Origin: Desulfobulbus propionicus DSM 2032
GTDB taxonomy: Bacteria > Desulfobacterota > Desulfobulbia > Desulfobulbales > Desulfobulbaceae
Direction of reading: 5' to 3'
DNA: 32,000 nt
Assembly (NCBI RefSeq): GCF_000186885.1
Contig: NC_014972.1
Location: forward strand, 270,001 to 302,000
In this document: piece by piece, positions 3,076-15,773 of the stretch
Layout of the letters: each line of letters starts with the position of its first letter
Position numbering within the stretch: the stretch's first letter is position 1
Position numbers and translations under genes: made by a program
Notes under the pieces: model-generated
What the model saw: only the letters and a program-made list of their open reading frames with translations
Told to the model about the DNA's origin: nothing
The model's database searches: none

Positions 3076-4290
3076 ATGAAACGGGAACTGATCAATAAAA
3101 GCGTGCTCCTGGCCTTGGTGCTGCTCATCTCGGCCCTGTTCCTCGACATGATCCGGCAGTTTCTGATGCCGATGTTCATGGCCGGCATCTTCTCCGCCAT
3201 TCTCAGCCCGGCCCACCGTTGGCTGACCGCGAGAATCGGCAATCGGGAGAATATCGCCTCGATCCTGGTGATCGTCGGCATCGTGGTGCTGGTGCTGGCG
3301 CCGCTGTCCATCCTTGTCGGCGTGGTGGTCGGCCAGGCCATCAGCGTCAGCCAGTCGGTCACCCCCTGGGTGCAGTCTTTCATCAACGAGCCGACCGCGA
3401 TCACCGCCTACATGGAAAAATTTCCCTATTACAAGGAAATTCTCCCCTACCGGGCGGTGATCATCGAAAAAGCCGGGATGATGGTGGGCAATCTCTCCAC
3501 CTTCCTCATCAACAGCCTCTCGGAGGTGACCAAGCTGACCGTCAACGCGGTCTTCAGCAGCGTGATCATGCTCTACGTGATGTTTTACTTCCTCACCATG
3601 GGCGAGGTGCTGCTCACCAAGATCCTCTATTTTCTCCCCCTCCAAGACCGCGATGAACGTCGTCTGTTGCGGCGGTTCACCTCGGTGACCAAGGCCACCC
3701 TCAAGGGCACGCTGATCATCGGCGCGCTCCAGGGGTTCATCTGCGGCGTGGCCTTTGCCCTGGCCGGGATCCAGGGACCGGTGTTCTGGGGCACGGTCAT
3801 GGCGGTGATGTCGATCATTCCCGCCTTTGGCACGGCCATTGTCTGGGTGCCGGCCCTGATCATCCTCGCCCTCAAGGGACAATTTTTCGGTGCGGTCATC
3901 CTCGGTGTGCTCTGCGGGGCGGTGGCCGGCAACCTCGACAATCTGCTCCGTCCCCGGCTGGTGGGCAAGGACACCGAGATGCACGACCTGTTCGTCCTCT
4001 TCGGGACCCTCGGCGGCATTTCCATGTTCGGTGTTCTCGGCATCATCATCGGTCCGATCGTCGCCGCCCTGTTCATCACCATCTGGGAGATCTACGGCAA
4101 GGCCTTCGAGGCCTATCTGCCCGATGTCGGGCCGTTGTTCAACCACAACCCGAGTGGGGGCGCCGTACCGGACTCCCTGACTGCCGAAGAGGTATCCGAT
4201 GCAACCGCGGAGTCGCCTCGCACGGCCGGGGAGGACGCCCCCAAAGCGGAGGAGCGGACAAGCGGCGACACAAACGGAAAGAGGGATTGA
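3076..4290 (+). CDS. AI-2E family transporter (PerM/YhhT, UPF0118) with an acidic disordered C-terminal tail
   Basis: 404 aa polytopic membrane protein. Its blocks (TLKGTLIIGALQG, IIPAFGTAIVWVPA, LLRPRLVGKDTEMHDLFVLFGTLGG, GIIIGPIVAAL) match the AI-2E/UPF0118 family as I remember it. Confidence 0.8.
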   Translation: MKRELINKSVLLALVLLISALFLDMIRQFLMPMFMAGIFSAILSPAHRWLTARIGNRENIASILVIVGIVVLVLAPLSILVGVVVGQAISVSQSVTPWVQSFINEPTAITAYMEKFPYYKEILPYRAVIIEKAGMMVGNLSTFLINSLSEVTKLTVNAVFSSVIMLYVMFYFLTMGEVLLTKILYFLPLQDRDERRLLRRFTSVTKATLKGTLIIGALQGFICGVAFALAGIQGPVFWGTVMAVMSIIPAFGTAIVWVPALIILALKGQFFGAVILGVLCGAVAGNLDNLLRPRLVGKDTEMHDLFVLFGTLGGISMFGVLGIIIGPIVAALFITIWEIYGKAFEAYLPDVGPLFNHNPSGGAVPDSLTAEEVSDATAESPRTAGEDAPKAEERTSGDTNGKRD

Positions 4291-4420: not shown

Positions 4421-5599
4421 ATGAGCGAAGCGACCCGGGTCAAGAATACAGGGCTGCGTGGAGTGACCGTCGCCGATTCGGCGATCAGTTTCATTGACGG
4501 CGAAAAGGGGGTACTGATTTACCGGGGCTATCGGATCGAGGATCTGGCCGACCATTCGTCCTTCATGGAAACCGCCTTTTTGCTGCTGTTCGGCACCCTG
4601 CCCACAGGCGAACAGCTGGAAGGATTTACCGGTCAGGTCAAAGGCATGCGTCAGGTGCCGCCGTACGTGCTGGAGAGCATGCGTCACTGGCCCAAGGATG
4701 CCCGGCCCATGGATGTGCTCCAGGCGAGCGTGCCGCTGCTGGCCATGGCCGAGCAGCACAGCGATACCATGGACCGCGATGTCTGCCTGCAGCGGTCCAT
4801 CGGTCTGCTGGCGCAGATGCCCACTCTGGTGGCCGCCTGGCACCGTATCCGCACCGGCCAACCGGTGCTCGAACCGGACCCGGACCTGGACCATGCCGCC
4901 AACTTCCTGTGGATGCTCCAGGGGAAAAAACCGGATGCGGCCACGGCCCACGACCTCGACGTCTGCCTGATTCTCCATGCCGACCACACCTTCAATGCCT
5001 CGACCTTTGCCGCCCGCGAGGTGGTGTCCACCCGGGCCAGCCTCTATGCCGGGGTGGCCGCCGGCCTGGGGGCGCTGTCCGGCAGCCTGCACGGCGGCGC
5101 CAACGCCAAAGTGATGGAAATGCTGCTCAAGCTGGAAAACGAACCGGATGTCGAGGGATGGGTGAAGAAACAGCTCAGCGAGGGGGACCGGATCATGGGC
5201 ATGGGGCACGCCATCTACAAAACCGGCGACCCGCGCGCGGTCTACTTGAAGAAAATGGGCCAGCGGCTGGGCGAGAAGACCGGCGGCAAATGGGCGAGCA
5301 TCTCCCAGCGGATCGAGCAAACCGCCTTGGCCATCTTTGCCGAGCGCGGCAAGACCACCATCCTGCCCAACGTTGATTTCAACTCGGCGCCGGTCTATTA
5401 CCTTATGGGCATTCCCACCGATCTGATGACTCCGGTGTTTGCCGTTTCGCGGGTCGCCGGCTGGTGCGCCCATATCATCGAGGAGCAGTTCGCCGACGCC
5501 CAGGGCAAACCGGCGCTCTATCGGCCCCAGGCCCAGTACGTGGGTGAATACTGCGGCCTGATGGGCTGCGAGTATTCGCCGGTGAACAAACGGGAATAA
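4421..5599 (+). CDS. Citrate synthase (short dimeric type; 2-methylcitrate synthase cannot be excluded)
   Basis: YRGYRIEDLA, LILHADHTFNAST, SGSLHGGAN, GMGHAIYKTGDPRA and NVDFNSAPVY are canonical citrate synthase family blocks. I chose the ATG at 4421, which has GGAGG at 4411-4415. The track start at 4406 is a TTG. Confidence 0.88.
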   Translation: MSEATRVKNTGLRGVTVADSAISFIDGEKGVLIYRGYRIEDLADHSSFMETAFLLLFGTLPTGEQLEGFTGQVKGMRQVPPYVLESMRHWPKDARPMDVLQASVPLLAMAEQHSDTMDRDVCLQRSIGLLAQMPTLVAAWHRIRTGQPVLEPDPDLDHAANFLWMLQGKKPDAATAHDLDVCLILHADHTFNASTFAAREVVSTRASLYAGVAAGLGALSGSLHGGANAKVMEMLLKLENEPDVEGWVKKQLSEGDRIMGMGHAIYKTGDPRAVYLKKMGQRLGEKTGGKWASISQRIEQTALAIFAERGKTTILPNVDFNSAPVYYLMGIPTDLMTPVFAVSRVAGWCAHIIEEQFADAQGKPALYRPQAQYVGEYCGLMGCEYSPVNKRE

Positions 5600-5608
5600 G
5601 GGTTGGGG

Positions 5609-5631
5609 GCGGGGCGAAGGCGAGGCCCCGC
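5609..5631. terminator. GC-rich hairpin between convergent citrate synthase and HD-GYP genes (possible terminator, no U-tract)
   Basis: GCGGGGC (5609-5615) and GCCCCGC (5625-5631) form a perfect 7-bp stem with a 9-nt loop. There is no T-run on either side. Confidence 0.3.
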
Positions 5632-5633
5632 GG

Positions 5634-7355
5634 TCACCACGCCGCCGCGGTCAAATCGACCCGTTTATCCGCGATCAGGCGCAGACAGGCATCCACGCTT
5701 TCCGCGTGGTAGAGAACGCCCCGGCCTGAACGAATCTCCTCCACCGCCGTTTCCAGACCCAGGGAGGGACGGTATGGGCGGTGCGAACTCATGGCCTCGA
5801 CCACGTCGGCCACGGTGAGGATTTTCGCTTCCAGCAGGATTTCCTTGTCGGTAAGCCCGCGCGGATAGCCGGACCCGTCGAGATGTTCATGGTGCTGGTA
5901 GACGATGTCCGCCACCGGCCACGGGAAGGGGATGTTCTTGAGGATCTCGTAACCGACCTCGGTGTGGCATTTGATGATCGCCCGTTCCTGCGCCGAGAGG
6001 CGGGCCGGTTTGGCCAGGTATTCCGAGGGCAGGCTGATCTTGCCAATGTCGTGCAGCAGGGCGGCGAAATGCAGCCCCTCGATCTGCTTCTCCGGCAAGC
6101 CCAGTTCGCGGGCAATGGCGCAGGCCAGCGTGTCGACCCGCATCTGGTGGCCAGCGGTGTAAGGGTCGCGTTTTTCGGCGGCCAGGGCCAGCGACTTGAC
6201 CGTTTCCTCCAAACTGGTGTGCAGCTCGTCGCGGCTCTTTTTCAGGGCCTCGATGGCGTTCTTGCGCTCGGAAATGTCGCGGGCAATGCCCCGGTACCCC
6301 AAAAGCTCACCGTCATCGCCGAACACCGGCACCCCGTTTTTCTCGATCACCACCACTCGTCCGTCCCGGGTTTGACACACGGTTTCAAAGCCGTTGAACG
6401 GTTTGCGCGACGCGATCAGTTTCTTGAAAATACGGCTGGTGCGGTCTAGTTCCTGAACGGCGACCAGGTCCTCCAGCTGCTTGCCGATGATCTCCTCGGC
6501 CGCAAACCCCAGCAGATCGCGCACCTTGGGGCTGCTGTAGGTATAGGCCCCGGCCGGATCGATCTCCCAGATCCAGTCGCTGGTGGTTTCCACCAGGGAG
6601 CGGAACCGCTCGTTGCTCTCTTCCAGGGCGGTCAGCAGCCGTTCCCGCTCTTCCCAGATGATCCGCCGCACCCGATCGGCCAGCACCGTATGGCGGATGA
6701 TGTAGAAGGCGAGAAAGGCGTTGAGCAGGAGAATGACGGTGGCAATGGCGTTGAGCTGTTTGGCGATCAGGCCGATTTCGACATTGACATCGTCAATGTA
6801 CAGCCCCGTGCCGATTACCCAGCCCCAGGGCGCGAATCCCTTGACATAGGACAGTTTGGGCACGATCCTGTTGGGGTCGTCCTGCCACTGGAAGAGATAT
6901 TCCACATAACCGGCACCCTGGGCCTTGACCACCCGGACGAATTCTTCCAGCAGGTTCTTGCCCGTGGGATAGCGGAAATCCGGGACCGCTTCGCCGCGCA
7001 GATCGGGGCGGTAGGGGTGGACCACGATCAGGGCGTTCATGTCGTTGATCCAGAAGTAATCCTTGTTGGCCGGACCGTAGCGGAGGTCGGCAATGATCTG
7101 CAGAACCTGCTTTTGTGCAGCCTCGCGGCTCATCTCGCCGTTGCGCTCCATCTTCTCATAGGCAGCGATGACATCGTAGACGATCTCGGCCATTTCCCGC
7201 AGCATCTCCCGTTTTTTTTCCAACAGGTTTTCCTTGAACGACGGGAGGATGATGACAAAGGTGGCGGTGACGAACAGCAGAATGGTGAACAGGGCCGGCA
7301 GGGCGATCCTGATGGAGATGGCATGGGCGAATTTTCGTTTTTTTTCCTTCTCCAT
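5634..7355 (-). CDS. Membrane sensor HD-GYP domain c-di-GMP phosphodiesterase (TM - single Cache-like periplasmic domain - TM - PAS - HD-GYP)
   Basis: The C-terminal HD-GYP signature is present: LLHDIGK ... HHEHLDGSGYPRGL. The N-terminal TM segment is followed by DYFWINDMNALIVVHPYRPDLRG (Cache_2-like), a second TM (IATVILLLNAFLAFYII), and then a PAS-like block (ERFRSLVETTSDWIWEID...). I chose the ATG at 7355 (MEKEKKRKF). Confidence 0.85.
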   Translation of the reverse strand: MEKEKKRKFAHAISIRIALPALFTILLFVTATFVIILPSFKENLLEKKREMLREMAEIVYDVIAAYEKMERNGEMSREAAQKQVLQIIADLRYGPANKDYFWINDMNALIVVHPYRPDLRGEAVPDFRYPTGKNLLEEFVRVVKAQGAGYVEYLFQWQDDPNRIVPKLSYVKGFAPWGWVIGTGLYIDDVNVEIGLIAKQLNAIATVILLLNAFLAFYIIRHTVLADRVRRIIWEERERLLTALEESNERFRSLVETTSDWIWEIDPAGAYTYSSPKVRDLLGFAAEEIIGKQLEDLVAVQELDRTSRIFKKLIASRKPFNGFETVCQTRDGRVVVIEKNGVPVFGDDGELLGYRGIARDISERKNAIEALKKSRDELHTSLEETVKSLALAAEKRDPYTAGHQMRVDTLACAIARELGLPEKQIEGLHFAALLHDIGKISLPSEYLAKPARLSAQERAIIKCHTEVGYEILKNIPFPWPVADIVYQHHEHLDGSGYPRGLTDKEILLEAKILTVADVVEAMSSHRPYRPSLGLETAVEEIRSGRGVLYHAESVDACLRLIADKRVDLTAAAW

Positions 7356-7644
7356 GCACGGTACCGAGGCGGGGGATGGCTGGTTGAGAAACAGGAGACG
7401 AACATCGGCGCTCAAACCGGAACAACGGTGTTCCCCGCAGCCCGGCGGTCCCGAAGCCGCGGTGCATTCGCCGCGCGCGATGTGTCCCTCATGCGCGCAA
7501 CATAATGGCTATGTCCAAGATCAGCAAGGATTCTTCCGCGTTTTCCCGTTGACAGGCCAATCGGCGGCTGTGATCTGCCGCTGGACAGGGTGTGCACATT
7601 GCGCTTGACTTTACCGGCTCAATCAAGTTCCTTTACACACAAGT

Positions 7645-7799
7645 TTCAGGTTCCTTTCGAGGATTAATAGGGAACTCCGTGGAATTCGGAGACGGGCCCG
7701 CCGCTGTAACCGGGGACGACCACCACAGTTCAGTCACTGACCTTCAGGTTGGGAAGGCGTGGTGGAAGGGTGAACCGGAAGTCAGAATACCTGCCTGAA
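7645..7799 (+). promoter_or_regulatory. Cobalamin (adenosylcobalamin/B12) riboswitch aptamer
   Basis: The P1 stem is TTCAGG (7645-7650) pairing with CCTGAA (7794-7799). The conserved core TTAATAGGGAACTCCGTGGAATTCGGAGACGGGCCCGCCGCTGTAACCGGGG parallels the E. coli btuB leader TTAATAGGGAATCCAGTGCGAATCTGGAGCTGACGCGCAGCGGTAAGG. It also has GGGAAGGCG and the B12-box GAAGTCAGAATACCTGCC (7779-7795). Confidence 0.9.
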
Positions 7800-7859
7800 G
7801 CGTGACAGTCGCTCTCCGCGGATCTGAGAGACGGCGCCGAGACGAGGATCAACCAGGGC

Positions 7860-7901
7860 ATCCCCGGATCATTTGCACACAATGATCCGGGGATTTTTTT
7901 T
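7860..7901 (+). terminator. Rho-independent terminator (expression platform of the riboswitch)
   Basis: ATCCCCGGATCATT (7860-7873) and AATGATCCGGGGAT (7881-7894) form a perfect 14-bp stem with loop TGCACAC. A run of 8 T follows immediately (7894-7901). Confidence 0.88.
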
Positions 7902-8300
7902 GTCGATTCAGCGCGGCTCCCGGATCGCAGGGACGGAACGCCTGGCAGCGCATCGTGTGTGGACGCTGCCGCTTTTCCGTGGAACGGCTCCTTGAAACGA
8001 AAGGGGCCTGTGTGAGGAAGCAAGGTTTGTTGTTGGCCATGTCCGGGATGCGCGGCGGCGGTATTGTTTGCCGGCGATATTGCCGCCCGCTCTCCTCCTG
8101 CCTCCCTGTATCGCATTCCTGCCCCCATCGTGACCTGCCCGAAGCCATTCGACCCCGTCGTTCGGGAAGAATGGGCGAGGCGATCCCAGTTGCAAACGAG
8201 TCGCCTCCTTTTTCTGCGGTTCCGGGTGCCTCCGGCGCGCCGAGAGCCTTCCTCTCTCTCGCCCCGCAGGCGACAAAACGGTGTTTGTCTCAATAACCCC

Positions 8301-8329
8301 TTGATTTTCGATGAAGTTATAACGATAAT
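8301..8329 (+). promoter_or_regulatory. Candidate sigma70-type promoter of the prkA operon
   Basis: TTGATT (8301-8306), a 17-nt spacer, then GATAAT (8324-8329). It lies in the only AT-rich patch of the region, about 50 nt upstream of the prkA ATG. This is a motif match only. Confidence 0.4.
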
Positions 8330-8381
8330 AAAAACAATCCGCTCTGGCAAACGTATCCTGATCTGGTCAAGGAGGAACAAG

Positions 8382-10442
8382 ATGACCGACCCGAAGAACA
8401 CTTCACTGCATGCCCACATCCTTGCTGTCAAAAAAGGTGAACGGGTTTTTGAAAATGCCTTTCAAAGTGTCAGCCGGATGATCCTGGAAAAGGACATCAA
8501 CAAGGTCACGGTCAACGGCAAATCCACCTTTGATTTCACCATCTTCCGCGAAGGCAAGAAACACATCATCGGCATGTACGACGAGATCAACTCGTTCGTC
8601 TCCTTTGTCAAGGACGCCTCCCAGGGCGGCTCCTCCAAGGAGATGGCCTTTGTCCTCGTCGGCGAGCCGGGCAACGGCAAGACCTTCCTGGTCGAGTATC
8701 TGTGCAGTCTGTACCGCGATTTTCTCTCTCGGCCCAAGAATCGGAAATACACTTTTCGGTTCACCAATCTCGACCGGATCGGCAGCTACGGCGCCATCAG
8801 AATGATCGAGTCGCAGACCTACGAGGATCCGATGATCCTGGCCCTCAATCTGTTTGAGAGCAAAAGCGAATCGATGCAGTACCTCGCCAAGAAATGCAAG
8901 GTCAGCGACGCCACCCTGGAGACCTGGGCCGAGAATTACCGGCCGCTGGGCGCCTGCTCGGCTTATATCTGGAACGACATTCGCACGCTCTGCGGCGACG
9001 ACGTCGAGGCGATGCTGCAATGCGTGGAGATCGTGCCGGTGCCGCTGGTGGAGAGTTTGGGCACGGTCACCGGCAAATATCCGGCCAAGGACAAGATCAC
9101 CAGTTCGGCGGTGGATCTGCTCGGCGAGGAGTCGATCCAACGGCTGTTGCACATCACCGACACCAACAATCCCTACCGGTTCGACCTGCGGCGCGGAGCC
9201 CTGGCCCGGGTGGCCGGCGGCGGCATCCATTTCAGCGACGAGATCTACAAGAACAAGAAAGACCTGGTGCAAGTGTACCTGGGGATCATTCAGAACCGGA
9301 CCATCGAGATCGATGGCTACCGCTGGCCGATCGACACCCTGATCATCGCCACCAGCAACAACTCGGAATTCAACCGTTTCCTCGCCGAAAAGGAAGAAGC
9401 GCCGATCATCGACCGCTGCCGCATCTGCTATGTGTCGCACAACACCAACTACCGTCAGCAGCGCGATCTGACCGCCTACGCCATCGGCAACGAGTCCAAG
9501 ACCACCCTCACCGGCAACGTCATGCACCAGGACCCGAACCTCAACTACGCCGCCTCGGTGGCCGTGGTCCTCACCCGTCTGCCGCGCTCGGAGAAGCTGA
9601 CCCCGATCGAGACCATGAAGCTGGCCGCCGGCGAGGTGGCGGGCGAAAAGAGCCTGAAGACGCTCGCCGAGGTGATCGACACCCTCAACCAGGAGCACGA
9701 CATCACCAAACGTTTCGGCCAGAAGGGACTGGGCCAGCGCAACCTCGGCCGCACCATGCAGCTGATGCTCGAGAGTTCGGAGACCAACGAGGGCAAGTGC
9801 ATGTTCGCCTACGACGTGTTCACGGCGCTGGAGCGGGTGATCCTCGACTATGTGTCCGAGGCGGCTGACCGGGCCAAATTCCTCGATGATCTCAAGATCG
9901 CCAAGGGACTGTACCGCGAGCGGATCATGACCGAGATGTTCAACGCCTACATGGACGAACCGCTGGCCATCCGCAAGGACGTGCTCAACTACGTCAACAT
10001 GATCATCGGCATCGACGCCGAGAACCTGGGCGTGGATCGGATGTGGAAGTACAAGAACCCCCAGACCGGCGAACTGCAGGCCTTAAAGATCGACGAACGC
10101 TACATCGATTCGGTCGAAGCCTGCCTCGGCTTGAAGATCCGCGAGCAGAAAGACAGCTTCCGCACCTCGATCCGCAAGATTTATGGCCAGAAGATTTCGG
10201 TCAATCCGGACTACGATTTCATGGACAATCTGGAGTTGGTCAAGGCGGTCACCGATGTTCGCCTGAAATCCGACATCGCCGGTGCCGGCAGCCTGATTGG
10301 CGCGCTTGCCAACCGCACCAACGAGGAGAACCAGAAGCTCTACGACCGGATGATCGACACCATGCTGAACAAGCTCGGCTACTGTGTCACCTGCGCCCAG
10401 AAGACCATCGAGTACTTCTGTACCCAGGTGGATGAGAACTGA
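8382..10442 (+). CDS. prkA: PrkA family protein (AAA+ ATPase annotated as serine protein kinase; YeaG homolog), paralog 1
   Basis: The ATG at 8382 is preceded by AAGGAGG (8369-8375). Walker A is VLVGEPGNGKTFLVEYL, with IHFSDEIYK further on. The overall layout matches the N- and C-terminal parts of B. subtilis PrkA and E. coli YeaG, including the C-terminal MLNKLGYCVTCAQKTIEYF. The in-frame extension back to 8064 in the track is non-protein-like. Confidence 0.9.
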   Translation: MTDPKNTSLHAHILAVKKGERVFENAFQSVSRMILEKDINKVTVNGKSTFDFTIFREGKKHIIGMYDEINSFVSFVKDASQGGSSKEMAFVLVGEPGNGKTFLVEYLCSLYRDFLSRPKNRKYTFRFTNLDRIGSYGAIRMIESQTYEDPMILALNLFESKSESMQYLAKKCKVSDATLETWAENYRPLGACSAYIWNDIRTLCGDDVEAMLQCVEIVPVPLVESLGTVTGKYPAKDKITSSAVDLLGEESIQRLLHITDTNNPYRFDLRRGALARVAGGGIHFSDEIYKNKKDLVQVYLGIIQNRTIEIDGYRWPIDTLIIATSNNSEFNRFLAEKEEAPIIDRCRICYVSHNTNYRQQRDLTAYAIGNESKTTLTGNVMHQDPNLNYAASVAVVLTRLPRSEKLTPIETMKLAAGEVAGEKSLKTLAEVIDTLNQEHDITKRFGQKGLGQRNLGRTMQLMLESSETNEGKCMFAYDVFTALERVILDYVSEAADRAKFLDDLKIAKGLYRERIMTEMFNAYMDEPLAIRKDVLNYVNMIIGIDAENLGVDRMWKYKNPQTGELQALKIDERYIDSVEACLGLKIREQKDSFRTSIRKIYGQKISVNPDYDFMDNLELVKAVTDVRLKSDIAGAGSLIGALANRTNEENQKLYDRMIDTMLNKLGYCVTCAQKTIEYFCTQVDEN

Positions 10443-10470
10443 GGGTGGAGGCAACGGACCAGGGGCAGCC

Positions 10471-11862
10471 ATGTACAGATTACGGCAACTCTATCAGCGG
10501 CTCGAAGCCAAGGGACTGACCGACGACCAGCGGCGGGTGATCGAGCGCGAGCTGGCGATGGCCGAGCAGGGGAGCGATCCCGTACGTGACCATCTGATCG
10601 GTCCGCCGCCTGTGGCCCGTTCGCTGTACAGCTACACTGATCCGCAGATGCTCGGCCAGGGCAATCCGTCGCCCCTGATGTCGCTGGTGGCGGCCCAGTC
10701 GCTCGATCATCTGCTCCAGCGTGACCTGCAGCGGGAAAAAGACGGCTTTCCGCGCAAGATCCGAGTGGGCAAGCTGGTCAAGCCGGGCCGGGACGGCGAC
10801 GACAAGGTGGTGGTCATCCCGACCACGGTCGAGGAAAAGCTGATCCACGACCGCATCCCCGAAGAGGAGGAAGGCGAGGGTGGAGAAGGCCAGGGGCAAG
10901 GCGAAGGCGGGGCTGGCGAGGGTGAAGAGGGCGAGGTGATCGGCGAGCAGCCGATCCGCGAACAGCAGGGCGGCGGCAGTGGCGCCGGGCAGGGCCAGGG
11001 CGGCACCCACGAACTGGAATCCACGGTTTACGATCTGGGCCGCATCCTCACCGAACAGTTCGCCCTGCCCAACCTGCGCGATAAGGGCAAGAAACGCTCG
11101 TTGACCCGTTTTGCCTACGACCTGACCGACAAGAATCGCGGCTTTGGCCAGATCCTCGACAAGAAGGCCACCCTGAAGCGGGTGTTGCAGACCAACATCG
11201 CTCTGGGGCGCTTGCAGGCGGGCACCCCGGTCGATGTCAACACCCTGATGGTCTCGCCCCGTGACCGGGTCTACCGCATCCTGTCCAAGGAAAAAGACTA
11301 CGAGTCCCAGGCGGTGGTCTTTTTTGTTCGCGACTATTCGGGATCCATGGCCGGCAAGCCGACCGAGTTGGTAGTCAATCAGCACGTGCTCATTTACGCC
11401 TGGCTGAGCTACCAGTACCAAAATCAGGTGGAAACGCGCTTCATCCTCCACGATACCGAGGCGCGGGAGGTGGAGAACTTTCAGGCCTATTACCAGATGC
11501 AGGTGGCCGGCGGCACCCAGGTGAGTTCGGCCTACCGTCTGGTCAACCGGATCGTGGCCGAGGAGGAACTGGCCCGCGACTATTCCATCTACGTTTTCCA
11601 CGGCACCGACGGCGACGATTGGGATACCTACGGCGAGGAGTCGTTGCCCGAACTGGAAAAGATGCTCGTCTACGCCAGCCGCGTGGGGATCACCATTGCC
11701 GAGAACGGTCTCGACGGCACCCGTCGCACCGAGGTGGAAAAATATCTGAGCAAGTCCGGTCTGCTGGAGTCACGCAAGGCCCTGCTGCGCTTGGACGTGA
11801 TGTCCAAGGAGAGCACCGAGACGCGGATCATCGAGGGCATCAAACATCTGATTTCTGAATGA
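10471..11862 (+). CDS. yeaH: YeaH/YhbH family protein (DUF444, vWA-like C-terminal domain)
   Basis: The ATG at 10471 (MYRLRQLYQRLE). A Glu/Gly-rich low-complexity linker is followed by YDLGRILTEQFALPNL, then FFVRDYSGSM (a vWA MIDAS-like DxSxS) and VFHGTDGDDW. It sits directly downstream of prkA, as in the conserved yeaG-yeaH pairing. Confidence 0.85.
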   Translation: MYRLRQLYQRLEAKGLTDDQRRVIERELAMAEQGSDPVRDHLIGPPPVARSLYSYTDPQMLGQGNPSPLMSLVAAQSLDHLLQRDLQREKDGFPRKIRVGKLVKPGRDGDDKVVVIPTTVEEKLIHDRIPEEEEGEGGEGQGQGEGGAGEGEEGEVIGEQPIREQQGGGSGAGQGQGGTHELESTVYDLGRILTEQFALPNLRDKGKKRSLTRFAYDLTDKNRGFGQILDKKATLKRVLQTNIALGRLQAGTPVDVNTLMVSPRDRVYRILSKEKDYESQAVVFFVRDYSGSMAGKPTELVVNQHVLIYAWLSYQYQNQVETRFILHDTEAREVENFQAYYQMQVAGGTQVSSAYRLVNRIVAEEELARDYSIYVFHGTDGDDWDTYGEESLPELEKMLVYASRVGITIAENGLDGTRRTEVEKYLSKSGLLESRKALLRLDVMSKESTETRIIEGIKHLISE

Positions 11863-11884
11863 GGGCGGGGCCTCCGGTGCGAGT

Positions 11885-13516
11885 ATGGAACTGATCAGTC
11901 AGCATGCCAAACGGATCATGGAGGGGTGCAAGGAACGCGCCCGGCAGGCAGGCCTGCGCTTCGAGGACGAGACCCTGGAATACGTGGTCACCAACCGCGA
12001 CATGCTGGAACTCGGCCCCAAGGTGATGATCCCCACCCTCTACGATTACTGGGTGCAGGAGGTGGAGGTGCTGCGCGAGCAGGGCCGCTACGAGCTGTAT
12101 CCCAACAATCCCTACGAGACGGTGATCAATACCCGGCCGCCGATTTCCTACTACAACGACAACAATCCCGATTGGCTCAACGTGATGATTTTTTACCACG
12201 TCATCGGCCATATCGATTTTTTTCAGAACAATCTCTTCTTCCGCCACACCTGGGACTACGATTTCACCGGCCGGGCCCTGGCCGACAAACGGCTGTTCGC
12301 CAAGCTGCGTTCGGAAAAGGGGCGCTGGGTGGATTATGTGATCGAGTTCGCCCGCACCATCGACAACCTGGTGGGCTATTTCGATCTGCTGGCCGATGTC
12401 GGCCAAGCGGGCGGCGACCAGCCCCTCAGTCTGCTCGACTACTACTTCGATGTCTTTCTCCAGCGCGGGCCGAAAACAATGGTGAGCACCTATTCCCGGG
12501 AGATCGAACGCTACAACCGGATGTGCAGGGAGTATCCCGAAGACGGGGATCTGCGCTTTGTCAAGAGCGTCACCGAGAAGTATACCGAACTGGAGAGTTT
12601 GCACGCCAGGAAGCTGAAGGAAAAAAAGAGCGTCGGCCGCACGGACCTGCTCCAGTTTCTCATGGAGTATTCGCCCTTTCTCAACCAGGAGAAGAACCGC
12701 TGGATGCTGATGATCCTTGAGGTCATCCGTTCGACCTCGCTCTACTTCCAGCCGCAGATCCGCACCAAGATCCTCAACGAGGGCTGGGCCTCCTACTGGC
12801 ATGACACCCTCTTCCTCGGCGATGAGCGGATCAGGGGCCACGAGGTCGACTACGCCATTGTCAACGCCAAGGTGACCTCCATGCCCCGGGTCGGGCTCAA
12901 CCCCTATGCCTTGGGGCTGCGGTTGTTCCAGCATCTGGAGGAGCAGGCGGACAAGGGACGCACCGGGTTGGAATACTTTCAGACCGCCGACCGTGAGCAG
13001 CGGCGCCATTTTGACCGGGCCACCGGCCAGGGCAGGGAGTACATCTTCCACATCCGCGAGAACTACTGCGATTCAATGTTTATCAACAGCTTCATCGACC
13101 AGGAGTTTGTTGACCGCTACCGCTTGTTCGTCGCCGGCAAACGGCTCAACCGGGAACGGATGACCTGGCAGTACTATGTCAAGAGCCGCAAGGCCGTCGA
13201 TTACCGACAGATGGTGGCCGAGAGCCTGTATCATCCACCGCGCGTCGAGGTGACGGTGGCGGAGAACAATGCCCTGGTGCTTGACCATGTGTTCGAGGGG
13301 AAACCCCTGTTGCGCGATTTCATCCAGGGGGTGCTGCTCGGGGTGGAGTTTCTCTGGGGCGACGAGGTGCATCTCTATACCAGCGTGCCCATTCCGGTCA
13401 AGGCGGGCAAAGAGGACGGACAGCCCCGGGAAGAAACCCCGAAGCGGACCATCAGCTGGAAACGGTTCCGTTTCACCATGAAAGACAGGACCCTGTCGCG
13501 GACGCTCGCGGAATGA
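11885..13516 (+). CDS. spoVR: SpoVR family protein (YcgB homolog)
   Basis: 543 aa with FYHVIGHIDFFQNN, ILNEGWASYWH and NPYALGLRLFQHLEE, blocks characteristic of SpoVR/YcgB. It is the third member of the conserved prkA-yeaH-spoVR module. Confidence 0.9.
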   Translation: MELISQHAKRIMEGCKERARQAGLRFEDETLEYVVTNRDMLELGPKVMIPTLYDYWVQEVEVLREQGRYELYPNNPYETVINTRPPISYYNDNNPDWLNVMIFYHVIGHIDFFQNNLFFRHTWDYDFTGRALADKRLFAKLRSEKGRWVDYVIEFARTIDNLVGYFDLLADVGQAGGDQPLSLLDYYFDVFLQRGPKTMVSTYSREIERYNRMCREYPEDGDLRFVKSVTEKYTELESLHARKLKEKKSVGRTDLLQFLMEYSPFLNQEKNRWMLMILEVIRSTSLYFQPQIRTKILNEGWASYWHDTLFLGDERIRGHEVDYAIVNAKVTSMPRVGLNPYALGLRLFQHLEEQADKGRTGLEYFQTADREQRRHFDRATGQGREYIFHIRENYCDSMFINSFIDQEFVDRYRLFVAGKRLNRERMTWQYYVKSRKAVDYRQMVAESLYHPPRVEVTVAENNALVLDHVFEGKPLLRDFIQGVLLGVEFLWGDEVHLYTSVPIPVKAGKEDGQPREETPKRTISWKRFRFTMKDRTLSRTLAE

Positions 13517-13544
13517 CGGCTCGGCGACAAGGAAAGGGAACGTT

Positions 13545-15773
13545 ATGGGTGCACTGACCAAAGCCTTGCAGACCCTGCACAAGTATCGGGGCGATCACAA
13601 TCGGCAGGCGGAGCTGTCGTTCACGCAATTCCTCCGCGAGGTGGTCGAGCGGCCGGAACGCAATATCCGCAACGTCACCCAGGTCTATGCCGACATGGTA
13701 CATCATTTTGTCCGCAACGGCTTTGACGAATACCGCAACGATCCGGAATCGATCAACTATCTGCACTACGACTGTAGCCGCCTGTTTGTCGAGGGCTCGG
13801 ACCGGCCCTTCTTTGCCGATCGTCTCTTTGCCAACCGGCTGGTTCGCCATGTGGAATCGCTTTCGGTTGGCGACCAGCAGAACAAGATCTATATTTTCGA
13901 CGGTCCGCACGGCAGCGGCAAATCGACCTTCCTCAACAACCTGCTGCGCAAGTTCGAACAGTATGCCAACACTCCGGAAGGCAGTCGGTTCGAGGTGGTA
14001 TGGCGGTTGAAGGTTCCCGAATCGGTTGGTGGCCAGACCATGGGCAGCGATCAGGGGGAAGGCGGCCATTGGCTGACCTTGCCCTGCCCGAGTCACGATC
14101 ACCCGCTGTTGCTCATCCCCAAGGAAATCCGGCGCCAGTTCCTCGATGAGCTGCTGGAGGACGACCGGTTCAAGGCCCAGCTGTTCACCGAGAAGAAATA
14201 CGAATGGGTGTTCCGCGAGGAGCCCTGCACCCTCTGCCTGTCGCTCTACCAGGAGCTGCTGAAAAAGGAGGGCGATCCCCTCAAGGTGCTGGACCATGTT
14301 TTTGCCCGGCCGTATGTGTTCAATCGGCGGCTGGGGGCCGGCATTTCGGTGTTCAACCCCGGCGACCGGCGCTCGCAGCGCAATGTTCGCACCGACGACG
14401 AGGTGCAGCGTACCCTCAACAGTCTGTTCTCGCCCGCCGGCAAGGTGCCCTATCTCTACTCAGGCTATGCCAAGAGCAACAACGGCATCTATGCCTTGAT
14501 GGACGTCAAGTCGCACAATACCGAGCGGTTGATGGATCTGCACAACATCATCAGCGACGGAGTGCACAAGGTCGATCATGTCGAGGAGCGGGTCAATTCC
14601 CTGTTTTTCGCCCTGATGAACCCAGAGGACAAGAAGGTGCTCACCGATCTGGCTGCCTTCTCCGACCGGATCGAATATGTCAATATTCCCTATATTCTCG
14701 ATATTAAAACTGAAATCGAGATTTATCGTGAGGTCTTTGGCCGGCACATCGATGCCAGTTTTCTCCCCCGGGTGCTGCACAACTTTGCCCGGGTGATCGT
14801 CGCCACCCGGCTGCGGACCCGGTCGGAGGCCATGCTCGAATGGATTCAGGATCCGGACAAGTATGCGCTCTACTGCGACAAGAACCTGCAGCTGCTCAAG
14901 ATGGAGATCTATACGGGCCACATCCCGCCCTGGCTGAGCGAGGAGGACGTGGAGCGGTTCACCTCCAAGCGGCGGCTGAAAATCATCGCCGAATCGGAAC
15001 AGGACGGCTGGCAGGGGTTGTCGGGTCGTGATTCCATCCGCATGTTCAACGAGTTCTATGCGCGCTACGCCCGTGAGGACAAGCTGATCGACATGTCGAT
15101 GCTCGGCCTCTTCTTCCGCAAATACTGCAAGAAGGACAAGACCTTCCTGCCCATGGGCTTTCTCGATTCCCTGTTGCGGATGTACAACTACGCCGTGTTG
15201 CAGTCGGTCAAGGAATCGCTCTACGACTACAACGAGGAGCAGATCGCCCGCGACATCCAGAACTATCTGTTCGCGGTCAACTTTGAACCCGGGACCAGCG
15301 AAACCTGCCGCTTCACCGGCGAGCGGCTGGACATCAACGAAGCCTTCTTTCAACGCATCGAGTCCCGGTTGATGGTCTCGTCCGCCGACGCCACGGCCTT
15401 CCGCAACAGCGTGCAAAAGGCGTACACCACCACCACCCTCACCCAGGAAATCCTGCGCGACAACCTGGACATCAGCCAAACCGCGCTGTACCTCCACCTC
15501 CACGAACGCTATATCCACCATCTCAAGGAAAAGGTGCTCGACCCCTTTCTGGAGAACGAGAATTTCCGCCGCGCGGTCAAGGAGTTCGATCAGGAGTCCT
15601 TCAAGACCTATGATCACAAGATCCAGAGCGATGTCCGTTTCATGATGCACAACCTGCAGAAAAAATTCGGCTATACCCGTCAGGGCGCCAAGGAAATCTG
15701 CATCTACGTCATCGACAACAACTTGGCCCGGGTCTTTTCCGAGCAGATCAACTACGGGCAGCTCATCCCCTGA
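13545..15773 (+). CDS. Second, divergent PrkA-family AAA+ protein (paralog 2)
   Basis: 742 aa. The N-terminus (ELSFTQFLREVVERPERNIRNVTQVYADMV) resembles the YeaG/PrkA N-terminus. Walker A is IFDGPHGSGKSTFLNNLL, followed by LPCPSHDHPLLLIP and CTLC, then DRIEYVNIPYILDIKTEIEIY (compare YeaG LDRIYIVKVPYCLRVSEEVKIY). The C-terminus carries LQKKFGYTRQGAKEICIYV, parallel to paralog 1. Confidence 0.8.
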   Translation: MGALTKALQTLHKYRGDHNRQAELSFTQFLREVVERPERNIRNVTQVYADMVHHFVRNGFDEYRNDPESINYLHYDCSRLFVEGSDRPFFADRLFANRLVRHVESLSVGDQQNKIYIFDGPHGSGKSTFLNNLLRKFEQYANTPEGSRFEVVWRLKVPESVGGQTMGSDQGEGGHWLTLPCPSHDHPLLLIPKEIRRQFLDELLEDDRFKAQLFTEKKYEWVFREEPCTLCLSLYQELLKKEGDPLKVLDHVFARPYVFNRRLGAGISVFNPGDRRSQRNVRTDDEVQRTLNSLFSPAGKVPYLYSGYAKSNNGIYALMDVKSHNTERLMDLHNIISDGVHKVDHVEERVNSLFFALMNPEDKKVLTDLAAFSDRIEYVNIPYILDIKTEIEIYREVFGRHIDASFLPRVLHNFARVIVATRLRTRSEAMLEWIQDPDKYALYCDKNLQLLKMEIYTGHIPPWLSEEDVERFTSKRRLKIIAESEQDGWQGLSGRDSIRMFNEFYARYAREDKLIDMSMLGLFFRKYCKKDKTFLPMGFLDSLLRMYNYAVLQSVKESLYDYNEEQIARDIQNYLFAVNFEPGTSETCRFTGERLDINEAFFQRIESRLMVSSADATAFRNSVQKAYTTTTLTQEILRDNLDISQTALYLHLHERYIHHLKEKVLDPFLENENFRRAVKEFDQESFKTYDHKIQSDVRFMMHNLQKKFGYTRQGAKEICIYVIDNNLARVFSEQINYGQLIP

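Follow-up and report, generated by a model that had tools for sequence, protein, structure and literature searches.

The cobalamin riboswitch that precedes the prkA operon of Desulfobulbus propionicus DSM 2032 is, with a probability that we put at roughly 0.8, a genuine B12 riboswitch orphaned by deletion of the gene cbiK, and its adjacency to prkA is a by-product of that loss. The window, meaning throughout the whole 32 kb stretch of DNA analyzed here, had earlier received a first-pass annotation that offered three explanations for a riboswitch with no B12-related gene behind it, namely (a) that it gates a non-coding RNA, (b) that it adds B12-dependent control to the prkA operon, and (c) that it is the remnant of a deletion. 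The annotation leaned toward (a) and (b) as new biology. That leaning does not hold as it was put, given that relatives carry a cob-type gene, cbiK, at this very position, the observation that the annotation had itself set against its preference. Option (c) is instead borne out, with cbiK lying between riboswitch and prkA in five of 12 relatives and in one metagenome contig, and ancestral on the tree. A B12 riboswitch beside the prkA/yeaH/spoVR stress operon would then be a consequence of gene loss and not a new regulon, a false lead removed by comparison with a dozen relatives, which resolves an apparently gene-less riboswitch.

A complete cobalamin riboswitch with a conserved terminator

The Rfam covariance model RF00174 (Cobalamin) matches the plus strand over its full length (positions 1-189 of 189). 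The match scores 116.1 bits (E = 1e-28), far above the gathering threshold of 31.5, and no further Rfam match occurs in the rest of the 32 kb window. The aptamer recognized in the first-pass annotation is thus confirmed at its location, although its start had been set at 7645, about 14 nt downstream of the position at which the Rfam match begins (Table 1). The accompanying terminator is likewise as perfect as described: its stem (7860-7894) comprises 14 pairs, seven of them G-C, around a 7-nt loop, and is completed by eight T's running from 7894 to 7901. Its folding energy of -23.3 kcal/mol (z = -4.6) is reached by none of 200 shuffled sequences. The spacing alone requires correction, from 60 nt after the aptamer to approximately 48 nt 3' of the end of the Rfam match.

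The terminator is intact in all 13 loci compared, and in the basal clade one of its stem pairs has been replaced, in compensatory fashion, from C-G to U-A. In the hairpin predicted for the linker between aptamer and terminator, two pairs covary (UA to CG and CG to UA) with pairing maintained, and aptamer, linker hairpin and terminator are conserved as one block. The expression platform expected of a cobalamin riboswitch is therefore present, as predicted from sequence, at every one of the 13 loci, and agrees in type with the transcriptional OFF switch originally proposed. No gene for B12 synthesis or transport, or for a B12-independent isozyme, lies 3' of the riboswitch here, whereas cbiK does in five of 12 relatives and in metagenome contig L148; a downstream B12 gene is the usual context of RF00174 and not a requirement of the RNA family.

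Table 1. Positions of features at the riboswitch locus. Coordinates refer to the window unless a relative is named.
Feature	Position	Strand	Basis
Cache-PAS-HD-GYP gene	ORF 5634-7415; public calls end ~7354	-	Pfam
CTTGAC/TTGACT box, -35-like, candidate promoter of the riboswitch unit	7605..7610	+	conservation
Cobalamin riboswitch aptamer (RF00174)	7631..7812	+	covariance model match, 12 orthologues, compensatory changes
CCGGGGA inside the aptamer, candidate antiterminator partner of the terminator 5' arm 7861-7867 (UCCCCGG)	7710..7716	+	RNAalifold
Linker hairpin between aptamer and terminator	7808..7835	+	predicted on alignment
Intrinsic terminator, 14-bp stem, 7-nt loop, eight T's	7860..7901	+	fold, 13 loci
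Element X, conserved structured RNA 3' of the terminator	7982..8150	+	13 loci and 4 metagenome contigs, covariation
Element X outer helix arms, 10 bp	7982-7991 and 8141-8150	+	alignment
Element X invariant UUGCCAUGUCCGG	~8034-8046	+	alignment
Element X inner hairpin, invariant GUUUGCCGGC top, freely covarying stem	8055-8086	+	alignment
Element X in relatives	L011 2741-2915; L009 3377-3553; L148 835-1026 (-)
Weak terminator-like hairpin and five T's, possible cbiK terminator remnant	8177..8213	+	fold
Sigma-70-like promoter of prkA: TTGATT, 17 nt, GATAAT	8301..8329	+	conserved block
prkA, first gene of prkA-DUF444-spoVR-prkA2	8382..10442	+	Pfam PrkA, AAA_PrkA

Approximately 25 nt 5' of the aptamer lies the hexamer CTTGAC, unchanged in 12 of the 13 Desulfobulbus loci whether or not cbiK is present; conservation does not extend into the DNA upstream of it. 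The box is likely the -35 element of the riboswitch unit, and we infer from it a promoter and start site; a search for the accompanying -10 hexamer returned no convincing one.

RNAalifold, run on the 13 sequences with the 3' arm of the terminator omitted, pairs 7710-7716 with 7861-7867. This pairing is a candidate antiterminator whose one supporting detail, in the place of covariation, is that the basal-clade arm, UCCUCGG, still pairs with CCGGGGA through a G-U. Inspection by eye gave no convincing kissing-loop partner for L5 within the expression platform. Just 3' of the T-run, at 7923-7940, a short block (CCGGATCnCAGnGnCGG) is conserved among crown-clade loci. The CCGGATC of the terminator 5' arm recurs in this block, which could consequently pair with the 3' arm in read-through transcripts.

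These elements suggest an ordinary class-I-type cobalamin riboswitch in which bound B12 would stop transcription via the intrinsic terminator. The ligand-bound aptamer would withhold 7710-7716, the terminator would then form, and the transcript would end at 7901. We infer this ligand response, as we do any present-day function of the orphaned riboswitch.

Genes around the riboswitch

The next plus-strand gene is, as noted before, prkA, which starts 480 nt past the terminator T-run. All genes from 8382 to 15773 lie on the plus strand in the order prkA, DUF444/yeaH, spoVR and second prkA; the two PrkA paralogues (686 and 742 aa) thus flank DUF444/yeaH and spoVR, and the first shows a partial match to the AAA_PrkA profile (positions 188-319 of 358). 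Besides these and the HD-GYP gene, the window encodes bioB, an aminotransferase, an AI-2E transporter, citrate synthase, acnB, aro and pyr genes and dsrMKJOP-like genes. Pfam scans of all larger ORFs found no B12-related gene within the 32 kb, in keeping with the earlier description. The prkA gene has a promoter of its own, predicted within a block (AATAACnCCTTGAATTTC...GCAATAATA) that is conserved in orphaned and cbiK-bearing loci approximately 55 nt before the prkA start codon.

Some relatives carry cbiK between the riboswitch and prkA

A PrkA protein scan with one genome per species yielded 80 loci, of which the twelve closest (L001-L012; 91-93% PrkA identity, all but one annotated Desulfobulbus or Desulfobulbaceae) served as relatives and the 68 from other genera (L013-L080) as outgroups. 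In each of the twelve relatives, a full-length cobalamin aptamer (110.8-126.6 bits) lies between the HD-GYP gene and prkA, on the same strand as prkA. Seven loci resemble the window in that prkA follows the aptamer after 550-730 nt, whereas in the other five the gap is 1.5-1.8 kb. In these five (L003, L005, L009, L011 and L012) the additional DNA holds an ORF of ~300 aa, between element X and prkA, that matches positions 2-261 of the 262-position Pfam CbiK profile (PF06180) with E-values from 1e-64 to 1e-71. Riboswitch, X and cbiK follow one another in this order on metagenome contig L148 as well. The riboswitch-prkA linkage that the first-pass annotation wished to see compared is accordingly an adjacency in seven of 12 relatives, is interrupted by cbiK in the other five and was not seen at the other-genus loci screened.

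Read by eye, the N-terminus of these CbiK proteins is hydrophobic and signal-like. Their closest solved structures are 2xvx (E = 4e-72), which we take to be the periplasmic CbiK(P) of Desulfovibrio vulgaris, and the heme-binding FetB; Salmonella CbiK is farther (3e-39). Judged by sequence, the relatives' protein is a signal-peptide-bearing CbiK(P)/FetB-like cobaltochelatase of the periplasmic type. In all five loci a strong intrinsic terminator (-16 to -28 kcal/mol) follows cbiK and precedes the conserved prkA promoter. Because cbiK has its own terminator and prkA its own promoter everywhere, the ancestral riboswitch unit would have comprised cbiK alone, insulated from prkA.

Polarity of the loss

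No cobalamin aptamer was detected within 5 kb of prkA at the 68 other-genus loci by sequence-only nhmmer searches, and the 12 nearest outgroups gave no Rfam match at all, which points to cbiK and not prkA as the ancestral target of the riboswitch. The HD-GYP/Cache/PAS gene is upstream in 12/12 Desulfobulbus loci and not near prkA in the 68 others, so the arrangement of HD-GYP gene, riboswitch, cbiK and prkA is genus-specific.

A neighbor-joining tree built from 4164 ungapped prkA-operon positions (200 bootstraps) places L009, L011 and L012, all with cbiK, in a basal clade (100% bootstrap). The crown (96.5%) divides into clade A (100%), where cbiK-bearing loci (L003, L005) mix with orphaned ones (the window, L004, L001, L008, L010), and clade B (99%; L002, L006, L007), where none has cbiK. 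CbiK identity tracks the species tree, at 85-87% inside the basal clade, 71% for L003 versus L005 and 68-70% between groups. Since cbiK occurs in the basal clade and is scattered in the crown, it is ancestral here and was lost at least twice. The placement of the window, L003 and L005 inside clade A is poorly supported (24-48% bootstrap), so that the losses number two or three and that of the window may be shared with the L004 group. A tblastn search at E <= 10 found no cbiK fragments in the window or the seven other orphaned loci, and the deletion is accordingly read from the phylogeny, having left no visible scar.

A trace of the ancestral cbiK terminator may nevertheless survive. The weak hairpin at 8177-8213 is the only terminator-like structure between 7901 and prkA in the window, at -12.8 kcal/mol (z = -0.7) no more stable than shuffled sequences. 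A 28-nt segment 38 nt 3' of it (8246-8273) resembles the L003 spacer 33 nt after the cbiK terminator (z = 3.6, 2/200 shuffles), and because this resemblance falls at a matching distance, the hairpin may be a degraded cbiK terminator, a homology that we propose tentatively on the strength of the sequence match. Between X and prkA, two terminator-like hairpins are present in L008 and L010 and none in L001 and L004; some read-through into prkA is possible in the D. propionicus genome.

In the account that we propose, the Desulfobulbus ancestor would have possessed a single-gene unit, consisting of promoter, riboswitch, terminator, structured leader X, cbiK and a second terminator, between the HD-GYP gene and a prkA operon that used its own promoter. 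The lineage of the window would have deleted cbiK, as would, independently, at least one other Desulfobulbus lineage, leaving promoter, riboswitch, terminator, X and probably the degraded cbiK terminator. The remnant would be a non-coding transcription unit of ~600 nt that should remain B12-repressed.

A structured RNA element downstream of the terminator

Element X occurs in 13/13 genomic loci and in four metagenome contigs, each time beside this riboswitch. A pattern scan of metagenomes returned 120 matches, only four of them true copies, and those with sufficient flanking sequence all lie at the riboswitch locus. The outer helix joins GAACGGCUCC with GGAGCCGUUC, or in the basal clade GAACGAAUCC with GGAUUCGUUC; in the window its 3' arm is degenerate (GAAGCCATTC), with two C-A mismatches. 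In an alignment of 16 sequences, both partners have been substituted in 10 of 24 pairs, and the covariation score of 0.308 compares with 0.203 in shuffles (0/500 reach 0.308) and at most 0.117 in slid controls. Frequent G-U pairs assign the structure to the plus-strand RNA. X is not coding, because the conserved blocks that follow its invariant ATG stand 26, 27 or 29 nt apart, depending on the genome.

Rfam holds no family for X, permissive searches included, and the matches obtained, to the purD motif (15 bits, E = 3) and, on the terminator, to NsiR1, are at chance level. By its conservation and covariation, X is a previously undescribed structured RNA linked to a periplasmic-type CbiK gene, a gene of poorly understood role to which it is newly tied here. 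A pseudoknot between UCCGGG and the GCCGGC loop of X was rejected on inspection, the substitutions of L005, L002 and L011 showing no covariation. ANTAR-type RNAs present dual hexaloop hairpins with A at loop position 1 and G at position 4; no tandem pair of this kind exists in any of the eight orphaned loci. In a target search of the window, the first invariant segment of X matched at chance level and the second gave nine matches versus four expected, none at an obvious target.

Some relatives show a second terminator-like hairpin and T-run after X, just 5' of the cbiK ribosome-binding site (L011 3010-3033, L012 ~3720-3745, L005 3817-3842), which is absent from L003 and L009. Given these hairpins, X may be a second attenuator-type control element.

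Conservation of the orphaned copies and their present function

An origin by cbiK loss is compatible with a present function as a non-coding RNA. The orphaned unit could act as a B12-gated RNA, with either the read-through X transcript or the terminated riboswitch working in trans, and we regard this as possible, if well short of probable. Its chief support is that the riboswitch has not decayed. Orphaned copies score 116-127 bits and cbiK-linked copies 111-122; in the eight orphans, no more than 19 of the 568 pair cells are disrupted (3.3%), and both partners have been substituted in nine of the 71 predicted pairs. Seven of the eight retain the TTGACT box, and the X core, with its covariation-backed structure, diverges by 1.4-17% among them. 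The post-X spacers of L008 and L010 align at 91%, which indicates one deletion common to both. These two loci differ at 3/265 riboswitch positions versus 48/452 positions of flanking non-coding DNA, roughly 9-fold fewer (Fisher p = 2e-7), and in all seven orphan-orphan pairs tested the riboswitch diverges less than its flanks (p from 2e-7 to 0.03). L008 and L010 also carry two terminator-like hairpins before prkA, so that prkA is not easily the output there.

Several properties of X weigh against this function. It has no ANTAR-type dual hexaloop, antisense partner or known motif, its outer helix contains two mismatches in the window, and it is also a leader in cbiK-bearing genomes and so did not evolve as a free-standing RNA. 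Moreover, clade A riboswitches, cbiK-linked copies included, diverge at 0.6-1.0 of the rate of 4-fold sites versus 0.15 in the basal cbiK clade, a faster evolution that could be partial relaxation. Such ratios are difficult to interpret at this locus, where 4-fold sites change at about half the rate of intergenic DNA. Flanking non-coding DNA was for this reason adopted as the neutral yardstick in place of 4-fold ratios. The fuller proposition, that after at least two cbiK losses selection kept promoter, riboswitch, terminator and X together as a free-standing B12-repressed non-coding RNA, we consider doubtful.

That the unit is instead an inert relic without present function, its apparent conservation reflecting recent deletions only, appears unlikely. 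Repeated loss of cbiK, with some losses maybe young, is in its favor, as are the degraded X helix and putative second terminator of the window and the case of L007, the sole orphan to have lost the TTGACT box, whose 117 bits are among the lowest orphan scores. Clade B, however, is orphaned throughout and 42-43% diverged at 4-fold sites, and its riboswitches are still 82-88% identical and have lost hardly any pairs; the divergence of L008 and L010 postdates their shared deletion, and their riboswitch has changed far less than its flanks. The orphaned copies are not decaying pseudo-riboswitches, their scores being no lower than those of cbiK-linked copies and their divergence well below that of the flanks. 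Sequence comparison suggests that they are under purifying selection and that the leftover switch is still kept. Such an absence of decay is unexpected for a mere relic and points to some remaining function.

Option (b) of the first-pass annotation, recast as read-through past 7901 after cbiK loss that would give prkA-DUF444-spoVR-prkA2 B12-repressible transcription or promoter interference, is improbable: purifying selection on the orphans requires some output, only the weak hairpin and five T's intervene before prkA in the window and no terminator-like site does in L001 and L004, but the prkA promoter is equally conserved with and without cbiK, a strong terminator insulated prkA ancestrally, L008 and L010, which supply the best evidence of selection, carry two hairpins before prkA, and no aptamer exists at the 68 other-genus prkA loci searched with nhmmer, the 12 closest also with Rfam. 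A literature search for a regulatory link between cobalamin riboswitches and prkA found no such paper, its single result being a broad review of B. subtilis annotation.

Relation to known riboswitch systems

A B12 element 5' of cbiK or cbiK-cbiL has long been known in delta-proteobacteria (Rodionov et al., 2004; PMC545781). The aptamer family is the same here, and the five cbiK-bearing relatives would share with those leaders a cobaltochelatase repressed by B12 through a terminator platform. The present locus differs in that the regulated gene is absent from this genome, that cbiK of the relatives is a lone copy beside prkA and outside any cob/cbi or btu cluster, and that an additional structured leader of ~170 nt, X, separates terminator and cbiK.

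EutX and Rli55 are cobalamin-riboswitch-gated non-coding RNAs of Enterococcus and Listeria that sequester an ANTAR regulator via dual hexaloops (PMC8079631). The D. propionicus unit resembles them in pairing a cobalamin riboswitch and terminator with no ORF behind, and in that read-through would add a structured domain, X; it differs in having neither dual hexaloops nor eut or pdu genes nearby, and in having become non-coding when a coding gene was deleted, any function being putative.

A choice between short and long non-coding transcripts, which the riboswitch would make here, recalls AspocR, a B12-riboswitch-controlled antisense RNA of Listeria that overlaps pocR. Unlike AspocR, the present unit has no antisense target, because the downstream 7 kb is all on the same strand. 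Lacking both dual hexaloops and an antisense partner, X as an effector would not act like EutX/Rli55 or AspocR.

The Listeria riboswitches SreA and SreB also act as trans small RNAs. In Desulfovibrio vulgaris, a SAM-I riboswitch is reported to double as an sRNA (bioRxiv 10.1101/803072), a precedent for dual riboswitch/small RNA roles that favors the non-coding RNA reading. A trans role of the terminated transcript would explain conservation without a downstream gene, but those riboswitches retain their cis gene, whereas the trans role is hypothetical here. As a natural series in which the regulated gene is present or absent and the orphan is conserved, these genomes offer a tractable case of cis-leaders becoming independent RNAs; if the non-coding RNA reading is true, a cis-regulatory leader has turned into a regulatory RNA gated by the riboswitch, and X is its effector domain.

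Additional observations on the locus

Two coding candidates near the riboswitch were rejected. A small protein in 7902-8381 finds no backing, since the ORF at 7955-8296 has no Pfam match and X spacer lengths vary; the region contains no conserved ORF and is not alignable as coding, with indels that are not multiples of three. A minus-strand ORF of 206 aa covering riboswitch, terminator and X (window 7730-8431) has no family match and is rich in indels between species. It appears among public gene calls on the conspecific contigs L202 and L204 (2349-2969, minus strand) and is almost certainly a gene-prediction artifact of GC-rich non-coding DNA.

The four contigs L201-L204, which come from different metagenome samples, are more than 99.7% identical to window 5382-13442 and share the orphaned layout. 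Their intergenic variants, at 7557, 7576, 7903 and 8224, all fall outside the riboswitch and X, and at four are too few to test.

L002 seems to have, around ~4800-4990, two copies of the prkA promoter block, AATACCGCCTTGAATTTCG...GCAATAATA and a degenerate one approximately 170 nt downstream, as if the spacer that remained after cbiK loss had undergone a local duplication.
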